Assembly: GCA_028714535.1 (NCBI GenBank)
Contig: JAQTME010000001.1
Coordinates: 1,270-65,269 of the forward strand
Source of the DNA: Candidatus Iainarchaeum sp.
Lineage (GTDB): Archaea > Micrarchaeota > Micrarchaeia > Anstonellales > Bilamarchaeaceae
Reading direction: 5' to 3'
Length of the DNA stretch: 64,000 bases
In this document: piece by piece, positions 21,396 through 57,932 of the stretch
How positions within the stretch are numbered: the first letter of the stretch is position 1
Layout: every line of letters starts with the position of its first letter
Translations under genes and position numbers: made by a program
The notes under the pieces: model-generated
Seen by the model: the letters and a program-made list of their open reading frames with translations, nothing else
Databases searched by the model: none
What the model was told of the DNA's origin: nothing

Positions 21396-23057
21396 CTATT
21401 TCGGCGCTGCGACGCCATAGGAGGCGATACGGAGCGCCAACGCCGCCAGGGGCGGAGGCACCATGGCGCGGCGCAGGATTTTGCCCAGCAGCGACACGTC
21501 CTCGCGCCTGAGGCATTTCATCAGGAGCGCAAGCAGGAAAAAGACGCCTGCGACAAACGCTGCCAGGAGGGCCAGGAACGAGAGGTAGACCGCCTTGTCG
21601 GCGATGGAGAACTGGACGCTGTCGGAAGGCTGCCAGAATATGCCGAGGGCGGAGAATGCGTGCGCCTTCAGCAGGGCCATGACAATGAAGGCTGCCGCGG
21701 CAGCAGCAAGCAGCTTCAGCGTCTCCGCAGGGAACTTGAAGCCGTACAGGACCCGGCCGTAATGGCGGTAGAGCAGCAGGAGCAGCGTGAAGCTGAGCAG
21801 GGACGCCAGGGCCGCGCCCTCCATGCCGAAGCCGGGGATGAGCAGGATGCAGAGGATGACGTTGGCTACCGCAGCCGCGGCTGAAATCCTGAGCTCAAGG
21901 CCCACCTGCCTGAGGGCTGCCAGCGCCATGGAGACCAGGTAGGCGAAGCCGTTCATCATTATGCCTAGGGTGAATATGAACATCACGAGCCAGCCTGCCT
22001 GGTAGGCCTGGCCATAGAAGGCGCCGAGCAGCTCGGACGGGAGCGAGATCATGACAACGGTGACCGGAAGTATGATGAACAGGAGCCAGCGCTGGGCCGT
22101 GTCCATGGTGGAGCGCATCTGGTCCGTGTCGTCCTTGCCTGCCAGCCTCGACATCACAGGCAGGAACACGGAGCCTATGGCTGCGGGGAACATCACGAGC
22201 ACGGTGGCCAGCGTCGTCGATATCGAATAGACTGCGATGAGCTGGGTGGCCTGCGAAGGCGGGGCCAGGTAGCCCAGCAGGATGCGGTCCGAGGAGACCA
22301 GCAGCAGGTTCAGCGAGTAGATGGCGGTGAGCATGAGGCCGAACGGCACCACTTCGGTGAGCACGAAATGGAAGGACGGCATCGCCTCCTTCCCCACTGG
22401 CAGCGAACGCTCCTTGCGGGAGACTAGTAAGAAGCCCACGAGGACCACGAGCAGGTGGGTTATCAGGAAGGGCATCGCGATTGTCATGAAGGAAGCGCCG
22501 AAAAAGAAGAAGAATGCGATGGTGAGCACGAACTTGAGCAGGTTGTCCATGTTCAGGAGGAACTGCATCTGCTTTATGTCGCTGAGGCCGTTGAGGAACG
22601 AGTAGTTTATCCTGAATATGTTGTTCAGCAGCAGGAACAGAGAGACTATGCGCAGCGCGCCCGGCAGGAGCGGGTTCTGGTACATGGAGCCCAGCGTGTC
22701 GGCGCACAGCCAGATGGCGCCCACGAAAAGCACGCTCAGGAGCGTAACGGTGAGGTAGGCGTACTTGAGCAGGGCCCGGACCTTCCCGTGCTCGCCCCTG
22801 CCCTCGTAATAAGGCGTATACCTTATGAGCGAGGCCGGCAGCCCGAGGTCGCTGATTACTATGAAGGTGGTGACGACTGCCAATGACAGGTAGAACAGCC
22901 CGATGTCGTCCTGGGACGCCATCCTGGCTATGATTACGACGTAGAGGAAGGAGATGAACTTGTAGAACAGCCCGCCGAAAAGGCTCCAGAAGCTGCCCCT
23001 TGCCACTTCCTTGGAATGGGCGGACACGTCTTCCGCAACCATGTCTTCGCCGTCCAT
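21396..23057 (-). CDS. MOP-superfamily oligosaccharide flippase (Wzx-like polysaccharide biosynthesis protein)
   Basis: About 12-14 TM helices, which is typical Wzx/MATE-like topology. It is the first gene of the glycosylation island. I took the ATG at 23057 as the start. Confidence 0.7.
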   Translation of the reverse strand: MDGEDMVAEDVSAHSKEVARGSFWSLFGGLFYKFISFLYVVIIARMASQDDIGLFYLSLAVVTTFIVISDLGLPASLIRYTPYYEGRGEHGKVRALLKYAYLTVTLLSVLFVGAIWLCADTLGSMYQNPLLPGALRIVSLFLLLNNIFRINYSFLNGLSDIKQMQFLLNMDNLLKFVLTIAFFFFFGASFMTIAMPFLITHLLVVLVGFLLVSRKERSLPVGKEAMPSFHFVLTEVVPFGLMLTAIYSLNLLLVSSDRILLGYLAPPSQATQLIAVYSISTTLATVLVMFPAAIGSVFLPVMSRLAGKDDTDQMRSTMDTAQRWLLFIILPVTVVMISLPSELLGAFYGQAYQAGWLVMFIFTLGIMMNGFAYLVSMALAALRQVGLELRISAAAAVANVILCILLIPGFGMEGAALASLLSFTLLLLLYRHYGRVLYGFKFPAETLKLLAAAAAAFIVMALLKAHAFSALGIFWQPSDSVQFSIADKAVYLSFLALLAAFVAGVFFLLALLMKCLRREDVSLLGKILRRAMVPPPLAALALRIASYGVAAPK

Positions 23058-23058
23058 G

Positions 23059-23967
23059 TCAGCCGGCCCTCCTGCGCTCGGACGCCACAAGGCGCCTGAC
23101 GCCGTCCTCAAGGGATACCGATGAGCGGAAGCCCAGCCGCCTTTCCGCCAGGGACGTGTCCGCCAGCGTGTGGGCGACATAGTTCCTTATCCGGTTCGGC
23201 TGGTACACCGGCCTTATGGACGTGCCCAGCTCCGCGTTGAGCAGCCCGACCACGCGGTTGAACGTGGCCGCCTTACCTGTGCCGATGTTGAATATGCCGT
23301 GCTCCATGCATCCCAGCGCGAGCGTGTTCGCCTTCACCACGTCGTCCACGTGGATGAAGTCGCGCGTCTGCATGCCGTCGCCGAACAGCACCGGGCTCTC
23401 CCCGGCCTCCATGGCCCACATGAACTGGCTGATGGGATTCGCATACCTGCCCTTGGGGCGCTCGCCGGGGCCGTAGACGCTGAAATAGCGCAGGCCTGCC
23501 GAAGGGAGCGAGTAGAGGGAGTGATAGAGCTCTGCCAGCCGCTCCATCGCATAGCGCGCCTCTGTGTAGAAATCCGTTACCGCGATTGGCATGCCCTCGC
23601 GGTGCGGAGGCTCATTGCCGTTGTAGAGGGAGCTGGATGACGCAAAAACCAGGCGGCTGTCGTTCCTGCGCGCGTAGTCGAGGACCGCGAGCCAGTCTGC
23701 CAGCGCCCTGGCGACGAGCTGCGGGTTTTCCAGGTACATCGGCGACGAGGAATAGGTGCCGAGATGGAGCACCGCCTCGAATTTCCCCTTCATGCCTGCG
23801 ATTTTGCCTGCATCGCCTTCAATGGCCTTCACCTTTGCCGCTGCGATGCTGCTGCGGCTGCCGGTGTGCAGGTTGTCAAGCACACTGACATCATGCCCTT
23901 CGGCGACAAGGCGCGCGGCCGTGTGTGAGCCGATGAAGCCGAGGCCGCCGGTAACGAGTATCTTCAT
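23059..23967 (-). CDS. NAD-dependent sugar epimerase/dehydratase (extended SDR family)
   Basis: TGGLGFIGSH Rossmann motif and a YxxxK catalytic motif. Confidence 0.8.
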   Translation of the reverse strand: MKILVTGGLGFIGSHTAARLVAEGHDVSVLDNLHTGSRSSIAAAKVKAIEGDAGKIAGMKGKFEAVLHLGTYSSSPMYLENPQLVARALADWLAVLDYARRNDSRLVFASSSSLYNGNEPPHREGMPIAVTDFYTEARYAMERLAELYHSLYSLPSAGLRYFSVYGPGERPKGRYANPISQFMWAMEAGESPVLFGDGMQTRDFIHVDDVVKANTLALGCMEHGIFNIGTGKAATFNRVVGLLNAELGTSIRPVYQPNRIRNYVAHTLADTSLAERRLGFRSSVSLEDGVRRLVASERRRAG

Positions 23968-24003
23968 GAGAATTCAAGTGAGTTTGGGGCTCGCATAATT
24001 AAA

Positions 24004-24990
24004 TCATTTGCCCCTGTGGAGCTCAAGCAGCTCCTCAGCGAGCCTGAAGCGGCCCATGCCGTCCACCAGCTCGCTCAGCCTCGCAGACATGCGGTCGCGG
24101 GCCTGCTTGTCAGAGAGGAGCGCTTCGAGGGACATGGCGCCCTGCGGATCAAGGCCGCCTGCTGCGCCCAGCGAGAGCGCAAGGCCGTTCTTGGCCGCGT
24201 AATCTGACGCTGGCGATTCGCCTATGAGCGCGGTGGGCAGCGCGAAAAGCGCCGGCTCGCAGAGGGACTCCGGGCCTGTGATTGCGAAATCGCAGGCCGC
24301 AAGGCGCCTGGCGAGGTTGCCCTCGTTACGCATTGAATTGAAGCGCGGGTCCAGCCCTATCTCGCGGGCCAGCTCCTCGCCATCGCTCAGGACCGTCGCT
24401 GAGAACTGGCCAGGGAGCGACTTGAGCAGGCGCACCGCATCAAGGGCATGGTCCTGCCCGCTGAAGTATACGAGCAGGCGCCTAGCTTTTTCAGGATTGG
24501 CGCAGCGGAACTCCTGGAATTCGTCGAATTCTGGGGGGAGCAGGGCGAACTCGGTGCCCAGGAACAGCGCGCCGTCGCATGGGTATTCGGCCAGGTGCGC
24601 GTGGATGCTTGGGTCTATGAGCGCATGGGCGGCGTAGGATTTGAGGCGCACCGAATCGCCGAAGGCCGCGAGCGTCTTCACCTTCCCTGCGAGGGAGCTG
24701 AGGAAACCCTCGTCGGCGGCAGGCCTGTCCACCACGAGCATGTCTGCGCCTAGCTCGCCCACCTTCTCCGCCGTCGCATCAAGGTCCCAGGATGTCAGGG
24801 TGAGGTCGCCGAGCTGGGCGTGGGCGAAGCCGCAGCGCGCTATGGCCTGCGCGTCGCGGGCGTGCGAAAGGAACGTGATTTCGCAGGACGGGTCGCTTTC
24901 CTTCAGGCCTGATGCGAGCGCGAGGCAGCGCTGCAGGCGCCACGCGCCGGTTTTCGGGTCTGATTCTGCACGGAAGGCGATTTTCGGCAT
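24004..24990 (-). CDS. pseG: PseG-like UDP-sugar hydrolase (GT28 C-terminal-like fold)
   Basis: N-terminal MPKIAFRAESDPKTGAWRLQRCLALA resembles PseG (MKI.FRAD.S..IG.GHVMRCL.LA). It lies in the nonulosonate gene neighbourhood. Confidence 0.55.
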   Translation of the reverse strand: MPKIAFRAESDPKTGAWRLQRCLALASGLKESDPSCEITFLSHARDAQAIARCGFAHAQLGDLTLTSWDLDATAEKVGELGADMLVVDRPAADEGFLSSLAGKVKTLAAFGDSVRLKSYAAHALIDPSIHAHLAEYPCDGALFLGTEFALLPPEFDEFQEFRCANPEKARRLLVYFSGQDHALDAVRLLKSLPGQFSATVLSDGEELAREIGLDPRFNSMRNEGNLARRLAACDFAITGPESLCEPALFALPTALIGESPASDYAAKNGLALSLGAAGGLDPQGAMSLEALLSDKQARDRMSARLSELVDGMGRFRLAEELLELHRGK

Positions 24991-25000
24991 GGGAAGCGCC

Positions 25001-26134
25001 TCAGTATGTCTTTCTCCTGCCCAGGACGCTGTCCGCGGCGGCAAAGACCTCGTCCACGGTTATCAGCTTCATGCACTCGCCGTCGCACGGCCTGAACTCG
25101 TTGATGTGGACGTTTATCACAGGATGGCCGGGCGTCGGATGGTATATTGCGGTGTTGCGCCCCGGTGGGAACGGGCCGAAGCGCTCGGGCGTGTTCGGGC
25201 CGAAAAGGCCGATGGCCGGCACGCCCTGGGCCGCTGCGATGTGCATCGGGCCGGTGTCGTTGGACACCATAAGGTCGTACTGGCTTATCAGGTAGAAGAG
25301 CGTCGATGCTGCCATGTCAGGGAAATTGTACACGCCCCCCTTCCGTTTCAGCATCGATATTATCTCCTCGTTGCCTGCCGCCTCTGCGCCTGAGCCCGTG
25401 AGTATCACCGTGCAGTCGTACCTCGCGGTTATCCGGTCTATCAGCTCCGCGAACCGTTCCTTGGGCCACGCGCGCCACGGGGCGGTCGGGCCGCAGAACG
25501 CATGGATGCCGATGATGGGCTTGCCTCCCTTGGGCCTGATATTGTTTGCCTCGAAACGGAGGTCGGCGGCCTTGCGCGCTGCCTCGCCGTACCTCAGCCT
25601 GACCAGCTCCGCAGGCCTTGCCGCGATGCCCAGCGGCGAGAGCAGGTCGCAGAACGTGTAGACCACGTGCTGGCGGTCGTTGTAATGGACGTTGGCATCG
25701 TACAGCTTCGCGCGCTCGCCGTAATCGAAGCCGATTGAGCGCTTCCCCATGAAGAACGCGAGGATTGCGGAAATCGCGAAGTGCGGCTCGGTGTCCATGG
25801 CCAGGTCGTACCTCCACAAGCTGGCCAGCACAATGATCGGAAGCTGCCAGGTCCACACCGTCCTGCACTCGTCTATGAACGGCTGGGCGAAGAACACGTC
25901 GTAGTTGCGCCGGGTGCACAGGACGGTTATTTTAGCGTCCGGCCTCGCGTCCTTGAGCGCCTTGAGCAGGGGTAATGTGAGTATGGTCTCGCCGAGGCCC
26001 CAGAAGCGCAGGACAAGGATGCTTTTCGGCTGCTGGTCGAGCGGCTTTTTTTTCTTGAATACTGAAAGCAGCCTGCAGAAGAATGGCAGGATATTTTTCT
26101 CGACAAAGCGCTCTGCGCCGTAGAACAGGCTCAC
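25001..26134 (-). CDS. glycosyltransferase family 9 (ADP-heptose:acceptor heptosyltransferase-like)
   Basis: N-terminal ILVLRFWGLGETILTLPLLKAL is the GT9 hallmark. Its start overlaps the stop of the downstream hldE-like genes. Confidence 0.7.
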   Translation of the reverse strand: MSLFYGAERFVEKNILPFFCRLLSVFKKKKPLDQQPKSILVLRFWGLGETILTLPLLKALKDARPDAKITVLCTRRNYDVFFAQPFIDECRTVWTWQLPIIVLASLWRYDLAMDTEPHFAISAILAFFMGKRSIGFDYGERAKLYDANVHYNDRQHVVYTFCDLLSPLGIAARPAELVRLRYGEAARKAADLRFEANNIRPKGGKPIIGIHAFCGPTAPWRAWPKERFAELIDRITARYDCTVILTGSGAEAAGNEEIISMLKRKGGVYNFPDMAASTLFYLISQYDLMVSNDTGPMHIAAAQGVPAIGLFGPNTPERFGPFPPGRNTAIYHPTPGHPVINVHINEFRPCDGECMKLITVDEVFAAADSVLGRRKTY

Positions 26135-26634
26135 CGCCTCCCGCCAGAGTAGGCCTCGATTATCTTCTTTATGAGCGACGTGGTGGTTATCTCTGACCCG
26201 GAGTCCTCTATGACCACCTTGCCGCCGTATGAGCGCACGAGCCCGGTCTCGGGCATCCTGTCAGCCTTCCAGTCGCCGCCCTTCACGTGGACGTCTGGCT
26301 GGAGCGCCTCGATAGTCTTTTCAGGGGTGCTTTCCTCGAAAATGACCACGTAATCAACGCACGGGAGCGCGCACAGCATCTCGGCGCGGTATTTCTGCGC
26401 GACGATAGGCCGCAGCGGGCCTTTTATCTTCCTGACGGACTCGTCGGAGTTGATGCCGACTATGAGCACGTCGCCGTGGGACTTGGCCTTGTTCAGGAAG
26501 CGCACGTGGCCCACGTGCATCAGGTCGAACACGCCGTTGGTGAAGACGAACTTCACCTTCTTGTCCTGGTCCCTGAGCTTCTGCCGAATGGATGCAAGCT
26601 TTTCAACCGTGATTAGTTCCCCCATGTCAATCAA
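26131..26634 (-). CDS. D-beta-D-heptose 1-phosphate adenylyltransferase (HldE domain II, stand-alone)
   Basis: FTNGVFDLMHVGHVRFLNKAKSHGDVLIVGINSD...VKGGDWK matches the RfaE/HldE C-terminal cytidylyltransferase-like domain. Confidence 0.85.
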   Translation of the reverse strand: MIDMGELITVEKLASIRQKLRDQDKKVKFVFTNGVFDLMHVGHVRFLNKAKSHGDVLIVGINSDESVRKIKGPLRPIVAQKYRAEMLCALPCVDYVVIFEESTPEKTIEALQPDVHVKGGDWKADRMPETGLVRSYGGKVVIEDSGSEITTTSLIKKIIEAYSGGRR

Positions 26635-27565
26635 GCCCCGGCAGCTCGGCCAGTGTTATCGCCGGATGCGGCTTTGCGATGGCCTTCGCGCAGCCGGCGT
26701 TGGCGAGCTTCACCGCATCGTCCATGCTTTTCCCCGATGCCAGCGCAAGCGTGAATATCGCGACGAAGATGTCGCCGGCGCCGGAGACGTTGACCACTTC
26801 TTTAGCCATGGACGGCCAGGTGCGGAACGCATTGGCTTTCGCATCTGCTATTGATGCGCCCTTCCCGCTCCGTTTCACGACCACCACGCTGCCGCTCGAT
26901 TTGGACAGTGCAAGCGCGCAGGCGCGGACTTCAGCCTCTTCATTTTTCATGCCGTCCTTGCCTGACGCTGCGCCGAGCTCGTGCAGGTTCGGCACGAGTA
27001 TGACGTTGCCGCCCCTGTAGGCGCCGATGTCGCCCTTGGTGTCCACGACGACCTTCTTTCCCTTCGCACGGGCGAATGCGAGCGCGCCTTCAATGAGTTT
27101 TTTGGTTAGCATGCCCTTCGCGTAATCGGAGATGATGATGAAGTCGGCGTCTTTCGCTGCGCTTTCAAGCCTTTCAAGCACCGCGCGCTCGGCAGCCGCG
27201 CTTATGGGCCGGCGCGTTTCGCTGTCAGCGCGCAGGAGCATCTGGAACAGCGGCTTTGTTTTCACGAAGCGCGTTTTCAGCGTGGTTTTCCTGTCCTCTT
27301 CGACCGGAAGGAAGTTTACGCCTGCCTCGGACAGCAGCTTCATGATGCCTGCTGCCGGCACGTCCATGCCGACGACAGAAAGGAAATGGACGTGGACGCC
27401 CAGGCCGGCCAGCGTCGATGCCACTATGCCTGCGCCGCCTGGGAAAAACTCCTCCCTTTCAACGTCAAGCACAGGCACGGGCGCCTCAGGCGACATCCGG
27501 TTCACCGAGCCGTAAACGTAATGGTCGAGCATCACGTCGCCGATGACAAGTATTTTCTTTGGCAT
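26627..27565 (-). CDS. D-beta-D-heptose 7-phosphate kinase (HldE domain I, stand-alone ribokinase-fold)
   Basis: ILVIGDVMLDHYVYGSVNRMSPEAPVPVL matches the HldE N-terminus, and a C-terminal GAGD motif is present. Confidence 0.85.
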   Translation of the reverse strand: MPKKILVIGDVMLDHYVYGSVNRMSPEAPVPVLDVEREEFFPGGAGIVASTLAGLGVHVHFLSVVGMDVPAAGIMKLLSEAGVNFLPVEEDRKTTLKTRFVKTKPLFQMLLRADSETRRPISAAAERAVLERLESAAKDADFIIISDYAKGMLTKKLIEGALAFARAKGKKVVVDTKGDIGAYRGGNVILVPNLHELGAASGKDGMKNEEAEVRACALALSKSSGSVVVVKRSGKGASIADAKANAFRTWPSMAKEVVNVSGAGDIFVAIFTLALASGKSMDDAVKLANAGCAKAIAKPHPAITLAELPGLD

Positions 27566-27572
27566 AGAACCG

Positions 27573-28163: not shown

Positions 28164-28219
28164 ATCGGGGACGGTTTTTATTCTTTTTTATCCCTAATAG
28201 GATATCTTCTGGTGTGTTT

Positions 28220-32666: not shown

Positions 32667-32732
32667 GGATAACGCTCGGGAGAAAAATTTATAACACCGG
32701 ACAGGCAAAGGGATAGTACTTCTGGTGTGCAA

Positions 32733-52202: not shown

Positions 52203-53185
52203 CAGCGCACCGCCCTGTCGTTGAAGACGATGCGCGAGCCCTCGCTCGGGAAGCCGAACTTCACCTCGCGCATTGGGGCGAGCGCCTTGCGCACCGCGGC
52301 CTGCTTCTCCTCTTCGCAGTAGAACATGAAGAACCCGCCGCCGCCTGCGCCAAGGACCTTGCCGCCGGTTGCGCCCGCCTCCTTAGCCGCCGAGTAGTAG
52401 TTGTCTATGAGCTCTGTGCTGACGCCGGAAGCGAACGTGCGCTTCATCTGCCAGGACTCGTCGAGCATCTCGCCGAACGAGCTGAGGTCCCCTTTCTCCA
52501 GCTTGGACTTCGCCTGCTCTGCCATGGAACGGAGGCGGTTGAGGTATTCGGTCTTGTCGCCTATCTTCTCCTTCTGCTCCTTGAGCACCCTCCCTGAGCT
52601 CCTGCTCACGCCGGTGTGGAAGAACAATAGTTTTTTCCTGAAGGCTGCCAGCGTGCTCGGCTTTATCTTAACCGGCTCAACTGAAACCGTGTCGTCCTTG
52701 TTGAAGCGTATGAGGTTGAAGCCGCCGAAGGCCGCGATGTACTGGTCCTGCTTGCCTATGGGCTCGCTGAGCACGCCTATCTCTATCCTGCAGGCCGCCT
52801 TGGCCAGTTTGTCAGCATCAGCAGGCTCGCCGCGGAATGCGTAGAGCGCGTTTAATACGCCGACAAGGAAGCTGCTGGAAGAGCCGAGGCCGGTGCCGTG
52901 GGAAGGGAAATCGGCGAGGGCGCTGAGCTCTATGGCATGGTCCACGCCGGTGAAGCGCAGGGCCTCGCGCAGCGTGGGATGGAGTATCTGGTCCACAGAC
53001 TCGACTATCTCGGTGAGCCGGTAGTTGAGCTGGATGGCATTGTCGAACTTGGGGTTGGCCATTATGTAGACGTACTTGTCTATGGCCGCGCTGAGGACGC
53101 AACCGTGGTCCAGCTCGTAATATTTCCTGAAGTCGGTCCCCCCTCCGAAGAAGGATATGCGGAACGGCGTCCTTGATGTAAGCAT
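52202..53185 (-). CDS. hddA: GHMP-family sugar kinase, D-glycero-alpha-D-manno-heptose 7-phosphate kinase-like (HddA)
   Basis: GHMP motif PSHGTGLGSSSSF. It sits with gmhA, hddC and gmhB. Confidence 0.7.
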   Translation of the reverse strand: MLTSRTPFRISFFGGGTDFRKYYELDHGCVLSAAIDKYVYIMANPKFDNAIQLNYRLTEIVESVDQILHPTLREALRFTGVDHAIELSALADFPSHGTGLGSSSSFLVGVLNALYAFRGEPADADKLAKAACRIEIGVLSEPIGKQDQYIAAFGGFNLIRFNKDDTVSVEPVKIKPSTLAAFRKKLLFFHTGVSRSSGRVLKEQKEKIGDKTEYLNRLRSMAEQAKSKLEKGDLSSFGEMLDESWQMKRTFASGVSTELIDNYYSAAKEAGATGGKVLGAGGGGFFMFYCEEEKQAAVRKALAPMREVKFGFPSEGSRIVFNDRAVR

Positions 53186-53189
53186 GGCA

Positions 53190-53762
53190 TCAGGCCTCTC
53201 CCATTTGTTTTCTCACAATGTGTATCTTGAGCAGGTGGCCGATGACGAAATGCACGTCCTCGGCAATCTCCACGTTGTCTGTCTTGGCTATTATGCAGTG
53301 TTTCGCGGTGCTGGCGAGCTTTCCGCCCTTGAAAGCGGCCAGGCCGGCTGTGTGCGCCCCTGCGCCGTTAGCATATTCGATGGCGCGCAGGACGTTGGGT
53401 GAATTCCCGCTGGTGCTTATGCCGATTGCCAGGTCGCCCGGCCTCAGCAGGTTCTCCAGCTGCTCCTTGAATATCATGTCGTATGACGTGTCGTTGCCCC
53501 AGGCCGTCATCAGCGGCACGTTCTCGTTGAGGCAGATGATCCTGAGGCGCTTCTTGCCAGGGACTATCGTGCCCTTTGACAGGTCGGCTGCGAAATGGAC
53601 CGCGTTAGTGGCGCTGTCGCCGTTGCCGAAAACATATATCGTGCCGCCGCGCGCGTTCGTTTCAAGCAGGAGATTTGCGAGGGACGCCACGTCCTCCTCG
53701 TCTATGGCGTCTAGGCATTGTTTCAGCATTTTCACGTAGGAATTCAAATCAGGCACGTTCAT
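53190..53762 (-). CDS. gmhA: phosphoheptose isomerase, second paralog
   Basis: SIS motif VFGNGDSATNAVHFAADL. Confidence 0.85.
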   Translation of the reverse strand: MNVPDLNSYVKMLKQCLDAIDEEDVASLANLLLETNARGGTIYVFGNGDSATNAVHFAADLSKGTIVPGKKRLRIICLNENVPLMTAWGNDTSYDMIFKEQLENLLRPGDLAIGISTSGNSPNVLRAIEYANGAGAHTAGLAAFKGGKLASTAKHCIIAKTDNVEIAEDVHFVIGHLLKIHIVRKQMGEA

Positions 53763-54457
53763 GCTATCCCCCCGCCGAGCGATTTTTTCAGGCGCTCTGG
53801 CGTGCCGATGTCAAGTATGTTCTCCCGGGTCATGTAAGCGTAAAGCTTCCCGCCTTTCCTGAGGATCCCGGGCAGGGCGTCCTTGTCCAGCATAGATTTA
53901 CCATCAGGAAAATACTTTAAGATTGCCTTCTCGAAGCAGTAGACCCCCGCATTGGATATGTTGTCGAATTTGTCGCCTGGCTTCGGCTTCCCCAGGAACC
54001 TGACGACCTCCCAATCCGGCGTGACCTCTAGTATGTCTGAGTCGTAGGGATGGTCGCTCTCATGCACAGTGAGCGTGCCCAGCCCGCCCTTTGCGGTGTG
54101 GAACCCGACCAGCTTGCGGAGGTCCATGCCGCCGAGCAGGTCGCCATACATCATGACGAACCTGTCGCTGAGCAGGGGCGCTGCCTTTTTCAGTGCGCCG
54201 CCTGTGCCGAGAAGCTCCGTCTCTATGGAATATTCGATGTGCACGCCGAGCCCGCTGCCGTCGCCGAAATGCGCCTGCACCAGCTCCGCCAGGTGGCCTG
54301 CGCAGATGACGATGTCCTTCATGCCATAGCGCGCCAGCCAGAGTATCTGATGCTCCAGCACGGGTTTTCCGTTCACCATGACAAGGCCTTTCGGCAGGGC
54401 TTTTGTCAGCTTGCCGAGCCTGGTGCCAAGGCCGCCTGCGACTATGACGCCCTTCAT
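53759..54457 (-). CDS. hddC: heptose 1-phosphate guanylyltransferase-like nucleotidyltransferase (HddC)
   Basis: KGVIVAGGLGTRLGKLT and 232 aa. It overlaps the flanking genes by 4 nt. Confidence 0.7.
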   Translation of the reverse strand: MKGVIVAGGLGTRLGKLTKALPKGLVMVNGKPVLEHQILWLARYGMKDIVICAGHLAELVQAHFGDGSGLGVHIEYSIETELLGTGGALKKAAPLLSDRFVMMYGDLLGGMDLRKLVGFHTAKGGLGTLTVHESDHPYDSDILEVTPDWEVVRFLGKPKPGDKFDNISNAGVYCFEKAILKYFPDGKSMLDKDALPGILRKGGKLYAYMTRENILDIGTPERLKKSLGGGIA

Positions 54458-55023
54458 ATCCTGCCCACCACCAGCTTCGCTGCTTCGTAGAGGCTGCCGC
54501 AGGTGTGGTCAGGGGCTGCCTCGTACCTTCCGTCCTTTCCGCCGTATCCTGTCCTGACGAGGATCGTAGTGCAGCCGAAGCTTTTTCCGGCGGCCACGTC
54601 CCTTGTGCTGTCGCCTATCATGAAGCACCGTTCCGGCGGCACGTTGAACTTTTTCGACGCCTCCTCCAGCATGCCTGTCTTCGGCTTCCTGCAGTAGCAG
54701 TCCACGCGGTATTTGGGGTCGCCTTCGGGGTGCTGCTCGGGATGGTGCGGGCAGTAGTAGATGGCATCCACGTGCGCGCCTTCCCTGGCCAGGAGCTCCT
54801 CCAGCTTCCTGTTGATCTGTTGGACGTCCTCCTCTGTGCACAGGCCGCGCGCCACAACCGGCTGGTTGGTGACCACCGCCACCTTGACGCCATGCGAGTT
54901 GAGCAGCTTTATGCCTTTGGCAGCACCTGGGATGAGGGCAAGCCTGCTTTCGTGGTGGAGAAGGTCTACCTCCTCGTTTATGGTGCCGTCTCTGTCAACC
55001 AGCGCCAGAAAACCAGGTTTCAT
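54454..55023 (-). CDS. gmhB: D,D-heptose 1,7-bisphosphate phosphatase (HAD IIIA)
   Basis: ALVDRDGTIN HAD motif I followed by VVTNQ. Confidence 0.8.
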   Translation of the reverse strand: MKPGFLALVDRDGTINEEVDLLHHESRLALIPGAAKGIKLLNSHGVKVAVVTNQPVVARGLCTEEDVQQINRKLEELLAREGAHVDAIYYCPHHPEQHPEGDPKYRVDCYCRKPKTGMLEEASKKFNVPPERCFMIGDSTRDVAAGKSFGCTTILVRTGYGGKDGRYEAAPDHTCGSLYEAAKLVVGRI

Positions 55024-55066
55024 ACGTGTATAATCTGTCTTGCGCGGCTTAAAAACAGTGCGGAAA

Positions 55067-55729
55067 CTAAGGCCTGAACCGTTCCTTGAGCAGGAATATG
55101 CAGTCCTTCACGCCGTCCATGAGCTGGACCTTTGATGTGCCGCCCCTGCGCGCGTAATCGATGGGCACCTCGGTCATCCTGAGCCCCTTCTTCACGGACT
55201 GGGCGAAGAGGTTGCACTCAAGCTCGAATGTGTGCGCCGTGACATCTATGGCCTTGTAGGCGTTTTTCCTGAACGCCCACATGCCCGTGCACACGTCGCT
55301 GACCGGCTTCAGGTAAAGCACGGTCGCCACCAGGGAGATCATCTGGTTGCCAAAGCCGTTTATGGGAGGCATCGCGCCCTCCTCGAAATGGCCCTTGAAG
55401 CGCGAACCGAGCACGACGTCGTAATCCTTGAGCAGGGAGAGGAATTTCTGTATGTCCTTGACCGGGTAGGTCAGGTCTGCGTCAATCATGACGGCATAAT
55501 CAGAGTCTATCTCCCTGAAGGCTGCCTTTATGGCGAACGCCTTGCCCTTCCTTTTCTCAAGCAGGATGCGCGCACCGAGCGATTTGGCGATCTCCACGGT
55601 CCTGTCAGTGCTCAGGCCGTCTATGACGACTATTTCCGCCTGTGGCACGGCTGCCCGGACCTCCGTTATGGTCCTGCCGATGCTCTCAGCCTCGTTGAGC
55701 GTGGGGAGTAGTATGGAAACAGAAGGCAT
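55067..55729 (-). CDS. dolichol-phosphate hexosyltransferase-like GT2 (Dpm1-like)
   Basis: VSILLPTLNEAESI...VIDGLSTD...IDADLTYP DxD region. It is short and soluble, like Dpm1. Confidence 0.75.
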   Translation of the reverse strand: MPSVSILLPTLNEAESIGRTITEVRAAVPQAEIVVIDGLSTDRTVEIAKSLGARILLEKRKGKAFAIKAAFREIDSDYAVMIDADLTYPVKDIQKFLSLLKDYDVVLGSRFKGHFEEGAMPPINGFGNQMISLVATVLYLKPVSDVCTGMWAFRKNAYKAIDVTAHTFELECNLFAQSVKKGLRMTEVPIDYARRGGTSKVQLMDGVKDCIFLLKERFRP

Positions 55730-55775
55730 AGGAAGACAGTTGGGCGGAAAACATTATTAATGAAGTGCCCGGGGC

Positions 55776-56780
55776 CTAGCTTTCCATCCCTGATATGCGT
55801 TTCAGGACGCTCTCCAGGCTGTGCTTATGGAGGTAGGCGGCTATCACCGGCACGGAGAATGAATCCACAACAATCATGCTGACGCGGGTAAGGAAGCCGA
55901 ACGCAACGCTGGACTCGAAAGGCACGCCGAAGGGCAGCAGCACGGCGGCAAAGGCCGCTTCGCTTGCGCCGGCTCCGGCCAGTGTCGGGGTGGGAACGAA
56001 TTGTATTATGGTTATGGCGGCCTGGAACACCATCATGAAAAGCAGGTCGGTGGTGATGGCGCCGGTGACGGATATGCCAAGGGCGTAGGAGATGCACAGC
56101 CATTCCACGGCTTTCAGGAACCAGGTGACCGTCGTGATCCCCATGACTCCCCATTTCAGTGTCAGTATCTTGCCTGAATGCGCGTGCATGCGCCGCAGGA
56201 AGGAGAATATGGTCGGGGCGAGAGGCAGTCTCTCTGCGAATGAGAAATGCTTCAGGAACGGCGGGTGGAAAACCAGCAGGCCTGCGAACAGAACTGCGGC
56301 AAGGGCGGCACAGACAACCACTGCGTTAATCGCCATGCCTCCAGCTCCCACCTTGGATATTATCAGGAGGGTAAGCACGATGGCTGAAAGGGCCTTTATC
56401 AGGAAATCGAAAAGCTGCGGGCCGAATATGGCTGTAAGCGTCTTGTCCGTGCTTATGCCGAATTTGGAGGAAAGCGAGAATGCGGTGAAGAAATAGCCTG
56501 CCCGCGCTGGCGTGAAGTCAGAGGCCAGGAGCCCGGCCAGGTTGGATGGGGCGACCTGCATGACGCTGAGGCGCTCCCCCATGCCGGCAAGGACGAAGTT
56601 TATCCTGTAGGCCATCACGAACGTGACTGCGGCGTATGCGATGAGCGCCAGCGCAAGAAGCTCCGGCCTGGCGCCGAGCAGCGTGCCGTATATCCGGCCA
56701 GCCCCGACCAGACAGAACACCGCCACGAAAATGGCGAGCGATATCAGGAGGTTGAGCAGGAGCTGCATGCGTTTGTCCAA
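55776..56780 (-). CDS. UPF0104 / lysylphosphatidylglycerol-synthase-TM-region-like polytopic membrane protein
   Basis: About 8 TM helices. This family is frequently found with GT2 polyprenol-phosphate glycosyltransferases. Confidence 0.55.
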   Translation of the reverse strand: MDKRMQLLLNLLISLAIFVAVFCLVGAGRIYGTLLGARPELLALALIAYAAVTFVMAYRINFVLAGMGERLSVMQVAPSNLAGLLASDFTPARAGYFFTAFSLSSKFGISTDKTLTAIFGPQLFDFLIKALSAIVLTLLIISKVGAGGMAINAVVVCAALAAVLFAGLLVFHPPFLKHFSFAERLPLAPTIFSFLRRMHAHSGKILTLKWGVMGITTVTWFLKAVEWLCISYALGISVTGAITTDLLFMMVFQAAITIIQFVPTPTLAGAGASEAAFAAVLLPFGVPFESSVAFGFLTRVSMIVVDSFSVPVIAAYLHKHSLESVLKRISGMES

Positions 56781-56851
56781 GGGAACACCAGGGCTGCCGT
56801 ACGGCTGCCGTTCGACTTATTCTGCCCGGCAACCGAATAAAAAGATATTGC

Positions 56852-57397
56852 ATGGCCCTGCGCATTCCATTTTATATGTTTAACACAGAGAATCCACTGA
56901 TGGACACGATTGCAGCCCTTGCGCTTTCCATAGACAACCCCATAGTGAAAGCTGTTGGGGAGATCATAGCCAACGAATTCATCTACGTGGGGATAATCAT
57001 AGCGCTGACTGTGCTCGGCGAAAGCAGGAACGAGAAGAGGCTCAAGATACTGGTGACGTTCGTTGCTGTCATGGTGGTGTGCGCGGCCATAAAGCAGGGC
57101 CTGGCGTACCCCAGGCCGTGCGCAGGCGAGGACTGGTGCCCAACGGACTATGCCTTCCCGAGCATGCATGCCGCGGCAGCGTTCACGCTGATGATAGCGT
57201 TCCTGGACAGCGGGGCCTATCCGCTCTACCTGCTTTTCGCGCTGTTTGTGTCTTTCACCAGGCTGAACCTGGGGGTGCATGCGTTCGCTGACGTGGCAGC
57301 CGCGCTGCCCATCGCGGCGATAGGCTACTACGCGGTCGATATGGCATGGAATGCGGGGAAAAGGAAGGGAGGGAAAAGGCATGGACCACGAGGTTGA
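56852..57397 (+). CDS. PAP2-family phosphatase (candidate polyprenyl/dolichyl diphosphate phosphatase)
   Basis: PAP2 motifs K-x6-RP (KQGLAYPRP), PSMH, and TRLNLGVHAFAD. The start may instead be the Met at 56900. Confidence 0.7.
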   Translation: MALRIPFYMFNTENPLMDTIAALALSIDNPIVKAVGEIIANEFIYVGIIIALTVLGESRNEKRLKILVTFVAVMVVCAAIKQGLAYPRPCAGEDWCPTDYAFPSMHAAAAFTLMIAFLDSGAYPLYLLFALFVSFTRLNLGVHAFADVAAALPIAAIGYYAVDMAWNAGKRKGGKRHGPRG

Positions 57398-57932
57398 ACG
57401 CCAGCTCTTCCATTTCCTGCTGGGCGTGGCAGCCCTGCTGCTCCTGCTGCAGTTCGGCAGGGGCTTCATGATAGCCCTTGTCTTCTTCATAACGATAATT
57501 GGCACCCTGCTGATGAACATAAGGCTCCGTGGCGGGAAGATATTCTTCGTCCAGTGGTTCGAGAAGAGGCTTGAGCGGCCTGACGCACCGCTTCCGGGCT
57601 GGGGCTCGGCCTGCTACGCCGTCGGCGTGCTCCTGCTGCTCACGTTCCTCACAAACACAAACGAGATAGCCGCGTCGCTTGTGGCGCTGGGCCTGGCAGA
57701 CGCCCTTTCCACAGTAATCGGCAGGAAAGGGAAGGTGAAACTGCCGCATAACAGGAACAAGACCGTCGAGGGCGCTGCTGTGTTTTTCCTATCGTCGCTG
57801 GCTGGATGGTATTTCATAGGGCCTGCGACGCTCCCGCTCGCCTTCGTCGCAACCATCGCAGAGAGCCTGCCCATCCTTGAGGACAACCTGACGATACCGA
57901 TTGCCTGCGTGCTGTTTTTCCTGGTCGTGTGA
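57381..57932 (+). CDS. dolichol kinase / polyprenol kinase-family membrane protein
   Basis: Four to five TM helices and a C-terminal GRKGKVKLPHNRNKTVEGAAVFF matching the CTP-dependent polyprenol kinase motif (KT-x-EG). Confidence 0.55.
   Translation: MDHEVERQLFHFLLGVAALLLLLQFGRGFMIALVFFITIIGTLLMNIRLRGGKIFFVQWFEKRLERPDAPLPGWGSACYAVGVLLLLTFLTNTNEIAASLVALGLADALSTVIGRKGKVKLPHNRNKTVEGAAVFFLSSLAGWYFIGPATLPLAFVATIAESLPILEDNLTIPIACVLFFLVV

Follow-up and report, generated by a model that had tools for sequence, protein, structure and literature searches.

A predicted glycan biosynthesis island in an uncultured DPANN archaeon is one form of a modular, hypervariable locus shared by related genomes

The genome of an uncultured DPANN (Micrarchaeota-type) archaeon, known only as a metagenome-assembled genome (MAG), carries an uninterrupted 36.5-kb island of 36 genes, at positions 21396-57932 of the 64-kb stretch of DNA that we analysed (the window). 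Pfam and NCBIfam scans predict glycan or carrier-lipid functions for 35 consecutive genes, besides one giant protein. Tiny DPANN archaea are commonly assumed to take their sugar precursors from a host, and we know of no characterised glycan from any of them. The island matters for both reasons, as it would mean that such an archaeon synthesizes its own pseudaminic acid and two activated heptoses, and possesses machinery for assembling, flipping and attaching a surface glycan. Its edges coincide exactly with gene ends (the stop codon of a Wzx-like gene at 21396 and that of the last small membrane protein at 57932), and the NCBI locus tags PHV13_00235 and PHV13_00280 are consistent with a numbering of 36 genes. 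The flanks are archaeal housekeeping genes, encoding A24 prepilin peptidase, LemA, M48, proteasome alpha, TBP, RFC and XPD upstream and DTD2 and PheRS downstream. The initial annotation's proposal that an archaeal island directs surface-glycan biosynthesis is borne out. The host, however, is a DPANN/Micrarchaeota-type MAG and not one of the Thermoplasmata or Methanomassiliicoccales, with which a synteny comparison had been suggested. Its counts were too high: at least 38 consecutive glycan genes, about 7 extended SDRs and 3 methyltransferases became 36, 6 and 2, respectively. Among the transferases, the GT2, GT4, GT9 and GT-C families that it listed were recovered, and two GT-B proteins had gone unnamed; the tally is 2 GT2, 1 GT4, 1 GT9, 1 GT-C and 1 sialyltransferase-like GT-B, with a PseG-like GT-B protein besides. 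Six proteins passed NCBIfam equivalog cut-offs: PseB, PseC, PseI, GmhA, the HldE adenylyltransferase half and a LegB-type dehydratase.

Three of these six belong to the pseudaminic acid (Pse) route and are encoded on the plus strand: the inverting UDP-GlcNAc 4,6-dehydratase PseB (28214..29206; TIGR03589, 495.7 bits vs a cut-off of 407.75), the aminotransferase PseC (29254..30414; TIGR03588, 467.5 vs 423.5) and the synthase PseI, with NeuB and SAF domains (30411..31457; TIGR03586, 483 vs 340.25). A public contig carries an identical gene call of 348 aa, which confirms the start of PseI at 30411. The NeuB_NnaB score of this protein is below cut-off (331 vs 399.65 bits). Its equivalog match identifies the NeuB homologue as PseI and not as the non-nonulosonate aldolase that the initial annotation had named as a refuting case. 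The PseG, PseH and PseF steps rest on sub-threshold matches. A PseH-like GNAT N-acetyltransferase (31468..31899, plus strand; Pfam Acetyltransf_3) reached 51.5 bits against a PseH (TIGR03585) cut-off of 93.1, and is replaced in the relative L010 by a formyltransferase-family gene with a weak Formyl_trans_N match. The candidate UDP-sugar hydrolase of the route is the PseG-like GT-B protein (24004..24990, minus strand), for which PseG (TIGR03590) was the sole NCBIfam match (E 5e-18, 65.6 bits vs 153.55) and no Pfam match or PDB sequence match was found; its gene is present in L003 and L010 and absent in L002. A candidate CMP-nonulosonate synthetase (33740..34507, plus strand) matched Pfam CTP_transf_3 at 105.6 bits and the PseF equivalog at just 29, with the cytidylyltransferase 6oew as its top PDB match (E 1.7e-44). 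By family assignment, these six enzymes would make CMP-pseudaminic acid de novo. A previously unannotated 362-aa GT-B protein (37467..38555, plus strand) adopts a sialyltransferase fold, carries both motifs of the sialyltransferases and is likely the pseudaminic-acid (nonulosonate) transferase.

The first heptose route lies in a minus-strand operon with tight or overlapping gene ends, in the order GmhA1-HldE_N-HldE_C-GT9-PseG-like-SDR-Wzx. It encodes the sedoheptulose-7-phosphate isomerase GmhA (copy 1, 27573..28163; TIGR00441, 213.7 bits vs 209.45) and HldE as two stand-alone halves, a PfkB-family heptose-7-phosphate kinase (26627..27565; Pfam PfkB) and a heptose-1-phosphate adenylyltransferase (26131..26634). 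The halves had been called bacterial LPS type; the adenylyltransferase passes its equivalog cut-off (TIGR02199, rfaE_dom_II, 182.9 vs 181.5 bits), whereas the kinase falls short (TIGR02198, rfaE_dom_I, 259 bits, E 5e-77, vs 345). The candidate ADP-heptose 6-epimerase is an HldD-like extended SDR (23059..23967), whose top NCBIfam match, over the full length, is heptose_epim (TIGR02197; 156 bits, under the 274.6 cut-off) and which is absent in L010. A similar call of LPS type for the GT9 protein (25001..26134) stands for family membership (Pfam Glyco_transf_9, 101 bits) but not for orthology to any LPS heptosyltransferase, every such equivalog scoring under cut-off (70.9 bits vs 170); its PDB similarity (3tov, WaaF) is confined to aa 193-323, the nucleotide-sugar domain. 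GmhA1, the split HldE, the island's single GmhB and the HldD-like SDR are predicted from their families to make ADP-glycero-manno-heptose de novo.

A second minus-strand operon with equally tight gene ends, LPGsynTM-GT2-GmhB-HddC-GmhA2-HddA-SDR5, would similarly provide a GDP-type heptose de novo, through GmhA2, HddA, GmhB, HddC and a GalE-like SDR. The HddA-like D-glycero-D-manno-heptose-7-phosphate kinase (52202..53185; GHMP) has NF049969 as its top match at 153.5 bits, under the cut-off of 600. Its top PDB matches, 4usm, 3k85 and 4n3o, are all heptose kinases (E 8e-45 to 9e-37, the next group following at 8e-16), so that its closest solved relatives are heptose-7-phosphate kinases and not the unrelated GHMP kinases that had been envisioned as an alternative. 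GmhA2 (53190..53762; Pfam SIS_2) is a GmhA-like SIS isomerase with 104 bits against the TIGR00441 cut-off of 209. The HddC-like sugar-1-phosphate (guanylyl)transferase (53759..54457; Pfam NTP_transferase) scored 142 bits with man1P_GTase and 87.5 with HddC, in each case under the threshold, and the GmhB-like heptose-1,7-bisphosphate phosphatase (54454..55023; HAD-IIIA) reached 159.5 bits vs 178 for NF006506, while passing the HAD-IIIA and histidinol-phosphatase domain models. The HldD, HddC, GmhB and GmhA2 steps rest on sub-threshold matches. In L011, the HddC and GmhB homologues are fused. The final gene of the operon encodes the GalE-like extended SDR (51246..52202; Pfam), with A. fulgidus GalE-1 as its top PDB match (3ehe, E 1e-76).

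Further glycan genes lie between the two operons. A LegB-type NAD-dependent hexosamine 4,6-dehydratase (39138..40130, plus strand; TIGR04180, 475.7 bits vs 475), a sugar-1-phosphate nucleotidyltransferase (40139..40846, plus; Pfam NTP_transferase, 146.7 bits; top NCBIfam match mannose-1-P guanylyltransferase, sub-threshold), an extended SDR, either epimerase or reductase (40839..41747, plus; Pfam GDP_Man_Dehyd and Epimerase), an aminotransferase and a GNAT could together make a LegB-type 6-deoxy-hexosamine de novo, judging from their families. The aminotransferase is of class III and GSA-aminomutase-like (34504..35820, plus; Pfam Aminotran_3; NF004856 at 247 bits, under cut-off), with PDB matches to GSAM and sugar C-6' aminotransferases; the second GNAT acetyltransferase is at 38536..39093 (minus; Pfam Acetyltransf_3, 93.8 bits). 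The others are a GT4 glycosyltransferase (41744..42757, minus; Pfam Glyco_trans_1_4 and Glycos_transf_1), a GalE-like extended SDR (42750..43661, minus; Pfam Epimerase, 181.8 bits; NCBIfam galE, 150 bits, sub-threshold), a GFO/IDH/MocA oxidoreductase (32727..33743, plus; Pfam; 92% identical in L010), SAM methyltransferase 1 (35817..36500, plus; Pfam Methyltransf_25/11/23) and a polysaccharide deacetylase family protein (36463..37413, minus; Pfam Polysacc_deac_1, 49 bits). A soluble GT2 of ~261 aa (31881..32666, minus) was recognized by Glycos_transf_2 on aa 302-474 of an over-extended 553-aa ORF and has weak ArnC/PpgS-type matches.

The membrane components begin with a Wzx/MOP-type lipid-linked oligosaccharide flippase (21396..23057, minus; Pfam Polysacc_synt at 79 bits, Polysacc_synt_3 and MurJ), which is 553 aa long if started at the ATG at 23057, has ~14 TM helices and is 81% identical in L002 and L010. 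At the other end, the Dpm1/AglJ-like soluble GT2 polyprenyl-phosphate glycosyltransferase (55067..55729, minus; Pfam GT2) matched AglJ (TIGR04182, 163.9 bits, top NCBIfam match) and Dol-P-hexose transferase (126 bits), both sub-threshold; among PDB entries, the Dol-P-Man synthase of P. furiosus ranks first (E 2.7e-15) and ArnC next. Upstream of it on that strand is a UPF0104/LPG_synthase_TM protein (55776..56780, minus; PF03706, 86.6 bits) that passes the TIGR00374 'flippase-like domain' cut-off (43.7 vs 43.2 bits). A PAP2 lipid phosphatase (56852..57397, plus; Pfam PAP2, 36 bits) is a candidate dolichyl-(pyro)phosphate phosphatase, and the adjoining 183-aa 5-TM protein (57381..57932, plus), with no Pfam or NCBIfam match and 1020 homologues, is functionally tied to it; PAP2 fusions were seen in 12 of 33 homologues sampled, long forms having been picked deliberately. 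A dolichol kinase that had been listed here found no profile support in the Pfam and NCBIfam scans.

The giant gene (45037..49272, minus) encodes a secreted surface protein with a signal peptide and an internal duplication, of 1411 aa if the start is the ATG at 49272, which is preceded by GGAGG. Its description as low-GC and sequon-saturated was correct. The protein has 85 N-x-S/T sequons, or 6.0 per 100 aa, compared with 0.34 in other window proteins; composition-preserving shuffles gave 33±5, with a maximum of 49. GC across the gene is 0.45-0.49 vs ~0.59 elsewhere, and because four-fold degenerate sites show the same drop (0.53 vs 0.79), this exceeds an amino-acid effect alone. The gene contains a 285-nt direct repeat with copies 2712 nt apart. 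The Pfam/NCBIfam scan gave weak Beta_helix and DUF2341 matches and no S-layer domains, and there is one partial homologue (P0281). Together with the adjoining SAM methyltransferase 2 (43772..44815, plus; Pfam Methyltransf_23/11), which has an N-terminal CxxC...CxxC segment and atypical codon use, it forms a compositionally foreign cassette. Methyltransferase 2 accompanies the giant gene in L010, where the cassette lies elsewhere in the locus, between pseB and gmhA; in the locus stretches read in other relatives, including beside the GT-C gene in L009, L011 and L012, it was not seen. The sequon excess makes the protein a plausible glycan target. The case for it as the dedicated substrate, the earlier view, is nevertheless weak: the cassette is foreign in composition and not stably linked to the locus, and the protein has no S-layer domains.

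In the model that we favour, with moderate confidence, a lipid-linked oligosaccharide containing heptose and Pse is assembled in the cytoplasm, flipped by Wzx and decorated outside. Soluble transferases would build it up on dolichyl phosphate, on the cytoplasmic side of the membrane: GT4, GT2, GT9 with ADP-heptose as donor, and the sialyltransferase-like GT-B with CMP-Pse. The Wzx-type protein, operon partner of GT9 and the ADP-heptose genes, would flip it. Its transfer to Asn sequons of surface proteins, for instance the 1411-aa protein, would then fall to an AglB whose gene lies beyond the window or, with lower probability, to an STT3-like 615-aa GT-C. A conserved three-part system would act outside the membrane: the Dpm1-like GT2 would load a monosaccharide onto dolichyl phosphate, most likely heptose or a derivative because its gene shares an operon with the GDP-heptose genes; the UPF0104 flippase-like protein would move the Dol-P-sugar across; and the GT-C would transfer the sugar to glycan or protein. 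PAP2 and its 183-aa partner, fused elsewhere, would recycle the carrier lipid. No AglB/STT3 (WWDxG) gene was found in the 64-kb window, and the scans revealed no initiating phosphoglycosyltransferase in island or window. We therefore assume that initiation and protein attachment are encoded elsewhere, unless the AglJ-like GT2 initiates rather than decorates. Other points against the model are the sub-threshold matches at several pathway steps, the unstable placement of the giant gene and the gene content of L009. For the same lack of AglB in the window, the N-linkage of the system originally proposed is something that we infer, whereas the surface-glycan island itself stands.

One could envision instead that the GT-C (49412..51259, plus) is itself the locus oligosaccharyltransferase (OST), a divergent minimal STT3/AglB-type enzyme that, with altered acceptor recognition, delivers the flipped heptose/Pse oligosaccharide to surface proteins, the GT2 initiating as does Haloferax AglJ, which puts the first sugar on dolichyl phosphate. 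The predicted structure (pLDDT 92.6) bears out the GT-C call, and among its structural neighbours (OST, ArnT and PMT-type) oligosaccharyltransferases are closest. The family carries a conserved TSxWPPG directly behind the last TM helix, the position at which AglB carries WWDYG; an acidic EDDD motif in EL1 is conserved, with invariant His and Arg, JGI labels two homologues 'Stt3', AglJ is the top NCBIfam match of the GT2, and the window contains no canonical AglB. However, WWDxG is missing from the protein and all 120 homologues, Pfam gave no STT3 match at a limit as loose as E<=5, and the family profile retrieved no OST from PDB sequences at E<=10. Moreover, the conserved placement of its gene beside those for a polyprenyl-P GT2 and a flippase-like protein is the signature of GT-Cs of the ArnT, PMT and AglS types, which use Dol-P-monosaccharides, and a canonical AglB may lie elsewhere in the genome, its absence covering the window only. 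We consider this unlikely.

Slightly less probable still is that the product is a non-protein glycoconjugate (a capsule-, EPS- or lipoglycan-like polymer, or a glycolipid), with the giant gene an unrelated passenger. Bacterial LPS/polysaccharide loci are typified by Wzx, GT9 and ADP-heptose, the locus has no AglB, its modular variability resembles that of O-antigen and capsule loci, and the giant gene is a mobile cassette of foreign composition, not seen in the locus stretches read in five related assemblies. Yet the Pfam/NCBIfam scans found neither a Wzy-type polymerase nor a chain-length regulator nor an ABC exporter in the island, the roughly six transferases fit an oligosaccharide, and a Dpm1/AglJ-like GT2 with an OST-like GT-C is typical of protein glycosylation systems. 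Furthermore, the S-layer protein of a cultured Micrarchaeon is glycosylated (bioRxiv 10.1101/2021.04.28.441871). That the GT9, HldE halves and pse genes are bacterial DNA joined to an archaeal contig by assembly or binning might be suspected from a MAG with families best known from bacteria, but is effectively refuted: the same contig carries archaeal housekeeping genes on both sides, the sampled island genes have uniform GC at four-fold sites (0.76-0.87), the giant/methyltransferase 2 cassette excepted, and gene order and housekeeping neighbours recur in independent assemblies from different projects.

Comparison with six related assemblies showed that a glycan locus, modular and hypervariable, occupies a single chromosomal site, fixed between the prepilin-peptidase and DTD2 genes. 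The island is the local version of this locus, common to related DPANN genomes, and no one-off. The GT9/ADP-heptose/Wzx arm occurs in L002-L004 and L010 with 63-88% aa identity and the same housekeeping neighbours, and the module that runs from the aminotransferase to SDR4 and contains the sialyltransferase-like gene is 52-92% conserved in L005 and L007. L012 and L011 share the block GT-C / SDR-HddA-GmhA-HddC-GmhB-GT2-(UPF0104)-PAP2-unknown-DTD2, of which L009 has a reduced form. Because HddA and GmhA2 are missing from the HddC/GmhB/GT2 operon of L009, the donor of the L009 GT2 cannot be GDP-heptose by that route and may be GDP-mannose instead, which counts against the heptose donor of our model. 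In the more distant L008, the UPF0104, GT-C and GT2 genes lie within 5 kb of one another. The glycan is probably strain-variable, since modules appear to have been exchanged between related genomes in the same style as in O-antigen loci.

Gene calling relied on a codon log-odds model that had been trained on the window itself, and the called genes were then scanned with Pfam and NCBIfam profiles. The results showed that 36 back-to-back genes span 21396-57932, with a gene end at each of these coordinates, and that 35 of them encode nucleotide-sugar enzymes, glycosyltransferases, or proteins with flippase-type or carrier-lipid functions; the remaining gene encodes a 1411-aa secreted protein. The glycan-function island proposed in the initial annotation was thus borne out in extent and content, with its counts of at least 38 genes, about seven extended SDRs, and three methyltransferases corrected to 36, six, and two, respectively. 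Both flanks consist of common archaeal housekeeping genes: those for TBP, RFC, XPD, archaemetzincin, glutamine synthetase, proteasome alpha, M48/LemA, and an A24 prepilin peptidase upstream, and those for the archaeal D-aminoacyl-tRNA deacylase DTD2, a HAD hydrolase, and PheRS alpha downstream. From the predicted functions, we interpret the locus as an archaeal protein-glycosylation or surface-glycan island that would unite an unusual sugar set for an archaeon with two uncharacterised transferase families.

The 615-aa GT-C protein (49412..51259, plus strand) is 100% identical to the NCBI protein PHV13_00280, and the 362-aa sialyltransferase-like protein (37467-38555, plus strand) is PHV13_00235. 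A search of genome contigs with the GT9 protein, which gave three close loci and is not a survey of archaeal GT9, identified 'Candidatus Micrarchaeota archaeon' MAGs as the closest genomes, and homologues of the GT-C occur in Micrarchaeota, Aenigmarchaeota, Woesearchaeota, and Nanoarchaeota. Because of these matches, we place the host among the DPANN archaea (kingdom Nanobdellati in current taxonomy) and not, as had been supposed, within Thermoplasmata or Methanomassiliicoccales.

Three other parts of the window deserve mention. Seven kb upstream of the island (~12900-14236, plus strand) lies a phosphoglucomutase/phosphomannomutase gene with four PGM_PMM domains, listed as a 580-aa ORF that starts too far upstream and overlaps glnA on the opposite strand; its product could supply sugar 1-phosphates to the island nucleotidyltransferases. 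A match to the Rfam tRNA model at 10775-10839 on the minus strand (30.3 bits, gathering score 29) may represent an atypical or degenerate tRNA or have arisen by chance; ARAGORN found no tRNA in the window. Downstream, two adjacent minus-strand genes (60070-61353 and 61350-63275) encode proteins of 427 and 641 aa, each with an N-terminal signal or anchor, one later TM segment, and about 1.9 sequons per 100 aa. Neither matched a Pfam family at E<=5, and unannotated genes of comparable size (335 and 645 aa) occupy the same position in the related locus L012; they are possibly conserved surface proteins.

Comparison with loci from six other assemblies resolved the island into five modules. The first (Wzx, HldD-like SDR, PseG-like, GT9, HldE_C, HldE_N, and GmhA1, the HldE kinase and adenylyltransferase being split) is found in L002, L003, L004, and L010 at 63-88% amino acid identity, beside the same set of housekeeping genes, with the PseG-like gene lacking from L002 and the SDR from L010. 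The second (PseB, PseC, PseI, GNAT, GT2, GFO, and cytidylyltransferase) recurs in L010 (60-95% identical), where a formyltransferase-family gene replaces the GNAT, and its place in MAG co91_498 (L009) is taken by a different set of NeuB, transketolase-like, aldehyde dehydrogenase, and CTP_transf_3 genes. The third (aminotransferase, methyltransferase MT1, deacetylase, sialyltransferase-like, GNAT, LegB, nucleotidyltransferase, SDR, GT4, and SDR) is shared with L005 and L007/L008 (52-92%), where it adjoins a different NeuB-containing set. Methyltransferase MT2 and the giant 1411-aa protein make up the fourth, present among the relatives only in L010, between pseB and gmhA, and not seen in the stretches read of the other loci. 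The fifth consists of the GT-C; the GalE-like SDR5 (51246..52202), HddA, GmhA2, HddC, GmhB, GT2, and UPF0104; PAP2 and a 183-aa protein; and DTD2. L012 has all of it. L011 differs in carrying an HddC-GmhB fusion, in having no called UPF0104 gene, and in the pilus-type T2SSE/T2SSF genes that precede PAP2; SDR5, HddA, and GmhA2 are missing from L009, and L008 has part of the module.

We read this arrangement as a hypervariable glycan locus that occupies one fixed site, with conserved arms and exchangeable cargo, a pattern comparable to that of bacterial O-antigen loci. The module-by-module swapping between close relatives suggests that diversifying selection acts strongly at the cell surface, where the organism meets hosts and viruses. 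The T2SSE and T2SSF genes (a type-IV-pilus-type ATPase and platform) lie between the glycan genes and PAP2 at 18241-21155 of L008 and 13448-16385 of L011, and the A24 prepilin peptidase of the window borders the opposite end of the island, which hints at a link between a pilus- or archaellum-like filament and the glycan locus.

Three enzymes of the pseudaminic acid (Pse) pathway passed NCBIfam equivalog cut-offs: PseB (TIGR03589, 495.7 versus 407.75), PseC (TIGR03588, 467.5 versus 423.5), and PseI (TIGR03586, 483 versus 340.25). PseI, for which the listed 363-aa ORF is over-long and the real start is the ATG at 30411, scored below the cut-off of the sialic-acid synthase model, and the NeuB homologue of the initial annotation thus remains a nonulosonate synthase after a test for reassignment. 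The candidates for the other steps are more distant. The PseH-like protein is a GNAT at the Pfam level (PseH model, 51.5 versus 93.1), and PseG was the sole match of the PseG-like protein (65.6 versus 153.55), which had no match among PDB sequences; both models were top matches that ran the full length. The cytidylyltransferase scored 29.3 on the PseF model, far below the cut-off of 205.7; we rejected it as a PseF equivalog and regard it as a CTP_transf_3 member (105.6 bits) nearer its best solved relative, PDB 6oew (E 1.7e-44). The LegB-type 4,6-dehydratase passed its equivalog model (475.7 versus 475).

In L010, which of the pse-bearing relatives is the closest, the formyltransferase-family gene (4794-5453, a weak Formyl_trans_N match) stands between pseI and GT2 in the place of the PseH-like GNAT. 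The swap suggests a nonulosonate variant with an N-formyl rather than an N-acetyl group; legionaminic acid in N-formylated form has been described in Halorubrum (PMC6137143). The same locus (1-2162) encodes a 773-aa class-III aminotransferase, homologous to the 438-aa product of window 34504-35820, with a faint LAGLIDADG_3 match between two Aminotran_3 segments. The insert, which the window copy lacks, looks like an intein.

The 362-aa protein aligned with positions 3-311 of the 316 in the PF07388 polysialyltransferase model, at 17.8 bits versus a gathering score of 23.3, and two of its homologues carry precomputed PF07388 matches. The family comprises 10 proteins, with Micrarchaeota the only named taxon. 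Fold comparison gave a GT-B fold with sialyltransferases nearest, and the D/E-D/E-G and HP motifs, reportedly defined as sialyltransferase motifs by Freiberger et al. in 2007, are present. This protein is the best candidate for the nonulosonate transferase of the island.

The heptose genes fall into two sets. GmhA1 (TIGR00441, 213.7 versus 209.45) and the heptose-1-phosphate adenylyltransferase HldE_C (TIGR02199, 182.9 versus 181.5) passed equivalog cut-offs. The HldE-type heptose-7-phosphate kinase (rfaE_dom_I, 259 versus 345), GmhB (NF006506, 159.5 versus 178), and the HldD-like SDR (heptose_epim, 156 versus 274.6) fell below theirs, each model being the top match over the full length. The STTR5 nucleotide-promiscuity motif described for heptose nucleotidyltransferases (PMC11461863) could not be mapped with confidence to the C-terminus ('...IEDSGSEITTT...'), and we make no claim for ADP- as opposed to CDP- or UDP-heptose. 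In the second set, which is contiguous and kept in L011 and L012, the HddA-like kinase scored 153.5 versus 600, the HddC-like protein 87.5 versus 300 (man1P-GTase scored higher, at 142), and GmhA2 104 versus 209; these matches, too, run the full length. The four best solved relatives of the HddA-like kinase are heptose-7-phosphate kinases (E 8e-45 to 9e-37), followed by fucokinases (8e-16), so that the assignment as a heptose kinase withstood the test that could have moved it to another family. The heptose kinases matched include 3k85, 4n3o, and 4usm/4usk, the last deposited as 'putative sugar kinase' and presumably the Burkholderia capsule kinase WcbL. In L011 (10271-11641), a 456-aa fusion protein joins the HddC-like nucleotidyltransferase to the GmhB-like phosphatase, which supports a common pathway; GmhB is single in the island and is probably common to both heptose routes.

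The initial annotation had described the GT9 transferase as being of bacterial LPS type. It is a clear member of the family (PF01075, 101.4 bits versus 22), but orthology to WaaC/WaaF/WaaQ was not upheld: the best LPS heptosyltransferase equivalog scored 70.9 versus 170.2, and its similarity to PDB sequences covers the donor-binding half only (aa 193-323), the acceptor domain being unrelated.

The secreted 1411-aa protein (45037..49272, minus strand) has a signal peptide, no TM segment or membrane anchor that we could find, and a composition of 12.4% Asn, 10.6% Ser, and 8.9% Thr. It contains 85 sequons, compared with 33±5 (maximum 49) in shuffled sequences, and an internal duplication (a 285-nt repeat, 2712 nt apart). 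Pfam gave weak Beta_helix and DUF2341 matches only, and a set of 5.8 billion proteins contained one, partial homologue. At four-fold degenerate sites, the GC fraction is 0.53 in this gene, 0.74 in the adjacent MT2, and 0.79 in all other genes, and L010 shows the same pattern. The proposal that it is an S-layer-type glycoprotein holds for the signal peptide and the dense sequons and fails for recognisable S-layer domains, an anchor, and conservation in relatives. The protein is more like the long beta-helix, sequon-rich 'pectin-lyase-like' surface proteins of the DPANN archaeon Nanobdella (bioRxiv 10.1101/2023.10.27.564410) than a lattice-forming S-layer protein.

The carrier-lipid genes lie at the downstream end. 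Dolichol-phosphate-mannose synthase of Pyrococcus (5mlz, E 2.7e-15) is the nearest PDB relative of the soluble 220-aa GT2 (55067..55729, minus strand), with ArnC next, and its best NCBIfam matches are AglJ and the haloarchaeal Dol-P-hexose transferase. The adjoining UPF0104 protein passed TIGR00374, 'flippase-like domain' (43.7 versus 43.2), and had no match in the PDB. The polyprenyl-phosphate GT2, the flippase candidate, and the GT-C are co-located in the window, L008, L009, and L012. The operon context of the GT2 points to GDP-heptose as its donor, and the sugar handled by the trio may be heptose. Since the GT2 and UPF0104 genes head the GDP-heptose enzyme operon and the block is kept in three assemblies (one of which, L011, has no called UPF0104 gene), the trio's donor is plausibly dolichyl-phosphate heptose, which, if true, would be new. 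L009 calls for caution on this point: it lacks HddA and GmhA2, and its GT2 may therefore use GDP-mannose.

PAP2 and the 183-aa protein that follows it (together 56852-57932, plus strand; the latter 57381..57932) form an uncharacterised, widespread two-domain lipid-phosphate module. The 183-aa protein has 1020 homologues, and 12 of 33 sampled, deliberately from the long forms, are fused to PAP2 (e.g., P0132, P0133, and P0142), which argues that the protein works with PAP2. Its earlier label of dolichol kinase found no profile support, as neither the protein nor the 33 homologues matched any Pfam or NCBIfam model, including polyprenol kinase and CTP_transf_1; the motif GDGxAT..G..GK..KTxEG offers a resemblance to dolichol kinase (Sec59/DolK), which does not establish the label.

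The 615-aa protein had no significant Pfam match (PMT_2, E 0.0027; no STT3 at E<=5), and the profile of its family found no oligosaccharyltransferase among PDB sequences at E<=10, leaving the fold comparison as the informative one. This comparison agreed with the GT-C call of the initial annotation: the protein has a GT-C fold and an AglB-like C-terminal globular domain, and oligosaccharyltransferases are nearest, with scores of 21.9 for human STT3B and 21.4 for Archaeoglobus AglB, followed by ArnT (19.4), AftA (18.1), ALG12 (17.8), Pmt4 (16.5), and PglB (16.1). Alignment of 43 homologues revealed invariant motifs, namely YP(W/Y)LEDDDPWxHA in the first external loop, PxFMSHFIWxQ, KLxPHRFW, and TSxWPPG immediately past the last TM helix. 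The WWDxG motif is absent from the protein, from 120 homologues, and from the six frames of the window. The protein is thus a GT-C enzyme whose modelled structure is nearest to oligosaccharyltransferases, and it is not a canonical AglB.

By family assignment, with several steps resting on sub-threshold matches, the island would supply de novo CMP-Pse, ADP-heptose, a second, GDP-type heptose, and a LegB-type deoxy-hexosamine. In the model that we favour, the GT4, GT2, GT9, and sialyltransferase-like enzymes would assemble a heptose- and Pse-containing oligosaccharide on dolichyl phosphate in the cytoplasm. It would be flipped by Wzx, whose gene is in one operon with those for GT9 and the ADP-heptose enzymes, and joined to Asn by an AglB encoded elsewhere. 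The GT2, UPF0104, and GT-C trio would then decorate the glycan or the protein on the external side of the membrane. A more specific and tentative hypothesis, which we consider rather unlikely, is that the conserved block of GT-C, GalE-like SDR, HddA, GmhA, HddC, GmhB, Dpm1-like GT2, and UPF0104 is an undescribed pathway that turns GDP-heptose into dolichyl-phosphate-heptose and flips this donor for use on the outer side by a new DPANN-wide GT-C family, derived from or sister to STT3/AglB with the sequon-reading WWDxG lost, that heptosylates surface glycoproteins. If so, the donor would be the first in which heptose is linked to a lipid phosphate, and the GT-C family would add a functional class to the oligosaccharyltransferase-like enzymes.

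Alternatively, the GT-C itself might be a minimal divergent oligosaccharyltransferase and the GT2 an AglJ-like initiator. The AglJ match of the GT2 is in keeping with this, the absence of WWDxG from the protein and its 120 homologues is not, and we consider the idea rather unlikely. That the product is a non-protein polymer or a glycolipid seems more doubtful. We set aside a Wzx/Wzy polymer pathway, as Pfam scans of the island found neither a polymerase nor a chain-length regulator. An assembly artefact or MAG chimerism is hardly credible in view of the archaeal flanks, the codon usage, and the synteny replicated in other assemblies.

The genomes of DPANN archaea are very small, and these archaea are commonly regarded as relying on hosts for building blocks. 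The island, in a Micrarchaeon relative, spends 36.5 kb on predicted complete routes to three unusual activated sugars and on assembling these, and such self-sufficiency is unexpected in this lineage; a study of the one Micrarchaeon in culture demonstrated that its S-layer is glycosylated and identified no activated-sugar genes (bioRxiv 10.1101/2021.04.28.441871). Of 122 archaeal genomes, fewer than 20% were predicted to carry nonulosonate genes and only six to have complete pathways, and Pse was detected in Archaea solely in an extract of Methanobrevibacter smithii, its linkage not established (PMC6137143). The island supplies a candidate transferase for this sugar in Archaea, as well as a candidate from an uncharacterised oligosaccharyltransferase-like GT-C family. 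Functional heptose enzymes have been reported in archaea (Tang et al. 2024, as summarised in PMC11461863), and the island offers candidates that bear on the role of archaeal NDP-heptoses, a question to which that cross-kingdom heptose study gave rise (PMC11461863). Precedents for both sugars on archaeal N-glycans exist in the legionaminic acid of Halorubrum sp. PV6, the sole nonulosonate shown there (PMC6137143), and in the heptose of Thermoplasma acidophilum (PMC11407970). However, each has one of the two sugars only, the genes of the pathway are of another kind (Leg rather than Pse), and neither organism belongs to DPANN.

Compared with the CMP-Pse pathway of Campylobacter and Helicobacter (PseB, C, H, G, I, and F), the island has PseB, PseC, and PseI at the equivalog level and candidates for the other three steps, but its PseG, PseH, and PseF candidates are divergent, its PseG-like gene lies inside the heptose/GT9 operon, and its likely transferase is sialyltransferase-like (GT38/GT80 fold) instead of a Maf-type flagellin glycosyltransferase. 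With the ADP-heptose system of the bacterial LPS inner core (GmhA, HldE, GmhB, HldD, and WaaC/WaaF), it shares enzyme families and pathway logic, whereas its HldE is encoded by two genes, its operon terminates in a Wzx flippase, and neither Kdo nor lipid A genes turned up in the window. The GDP-D-glycero-alpha-D-manno-heptose pathway (GmhA, HddA, GmhB, and HddC) serves the S-layer glycan of Aneurinibacillus and the capsules of Campylobacter and Burkholderia. All four families are contiguous in the island, but every member falls below its NCBIfam equivalog cut-off, and the operon runs on into a Dol-P-sugar synthase and a flippase-like gene, a continuation for which we know of no precedent.

The trio resembles the ArnC/ArnEF/ArnT, GtrA/GtrB/GtrC, and DPMS with PMT/ALG systems in having a GT2 near DPMS/ArnC and a flippase-like protein and GT-C kept as a set; it differs in that the flippase candidate is of the UPF0104/MprF type and the GT-C has an AglB-like C-terminal domain. 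The N-glycosylation pathway of Haloferax volcanii comprises AglJ/G/I/E, AglD, AglR, AglS, and AglB (for a review, see PMC11407970). Common to it and the island are a Dol-P-based GT2 (AglJ/AglD-like), a Wzx-like flippase, a GT-C that would add sugar externally from a Dol-P-monosaccharide, following AglS-like logic, and a sequon-rich surface protein as the target. The island locus has no AglB, and its predicted sugars (pseudaminic acid, two heptoses, and a LegB-type deoxy-hexosamine) are wholly different. Its GT-C belongs to an uncharacterised family structurally closer to STT3 than to AglS, a UPF0104 protein would act as a second flippase, and the host is a DPANN archaeon.
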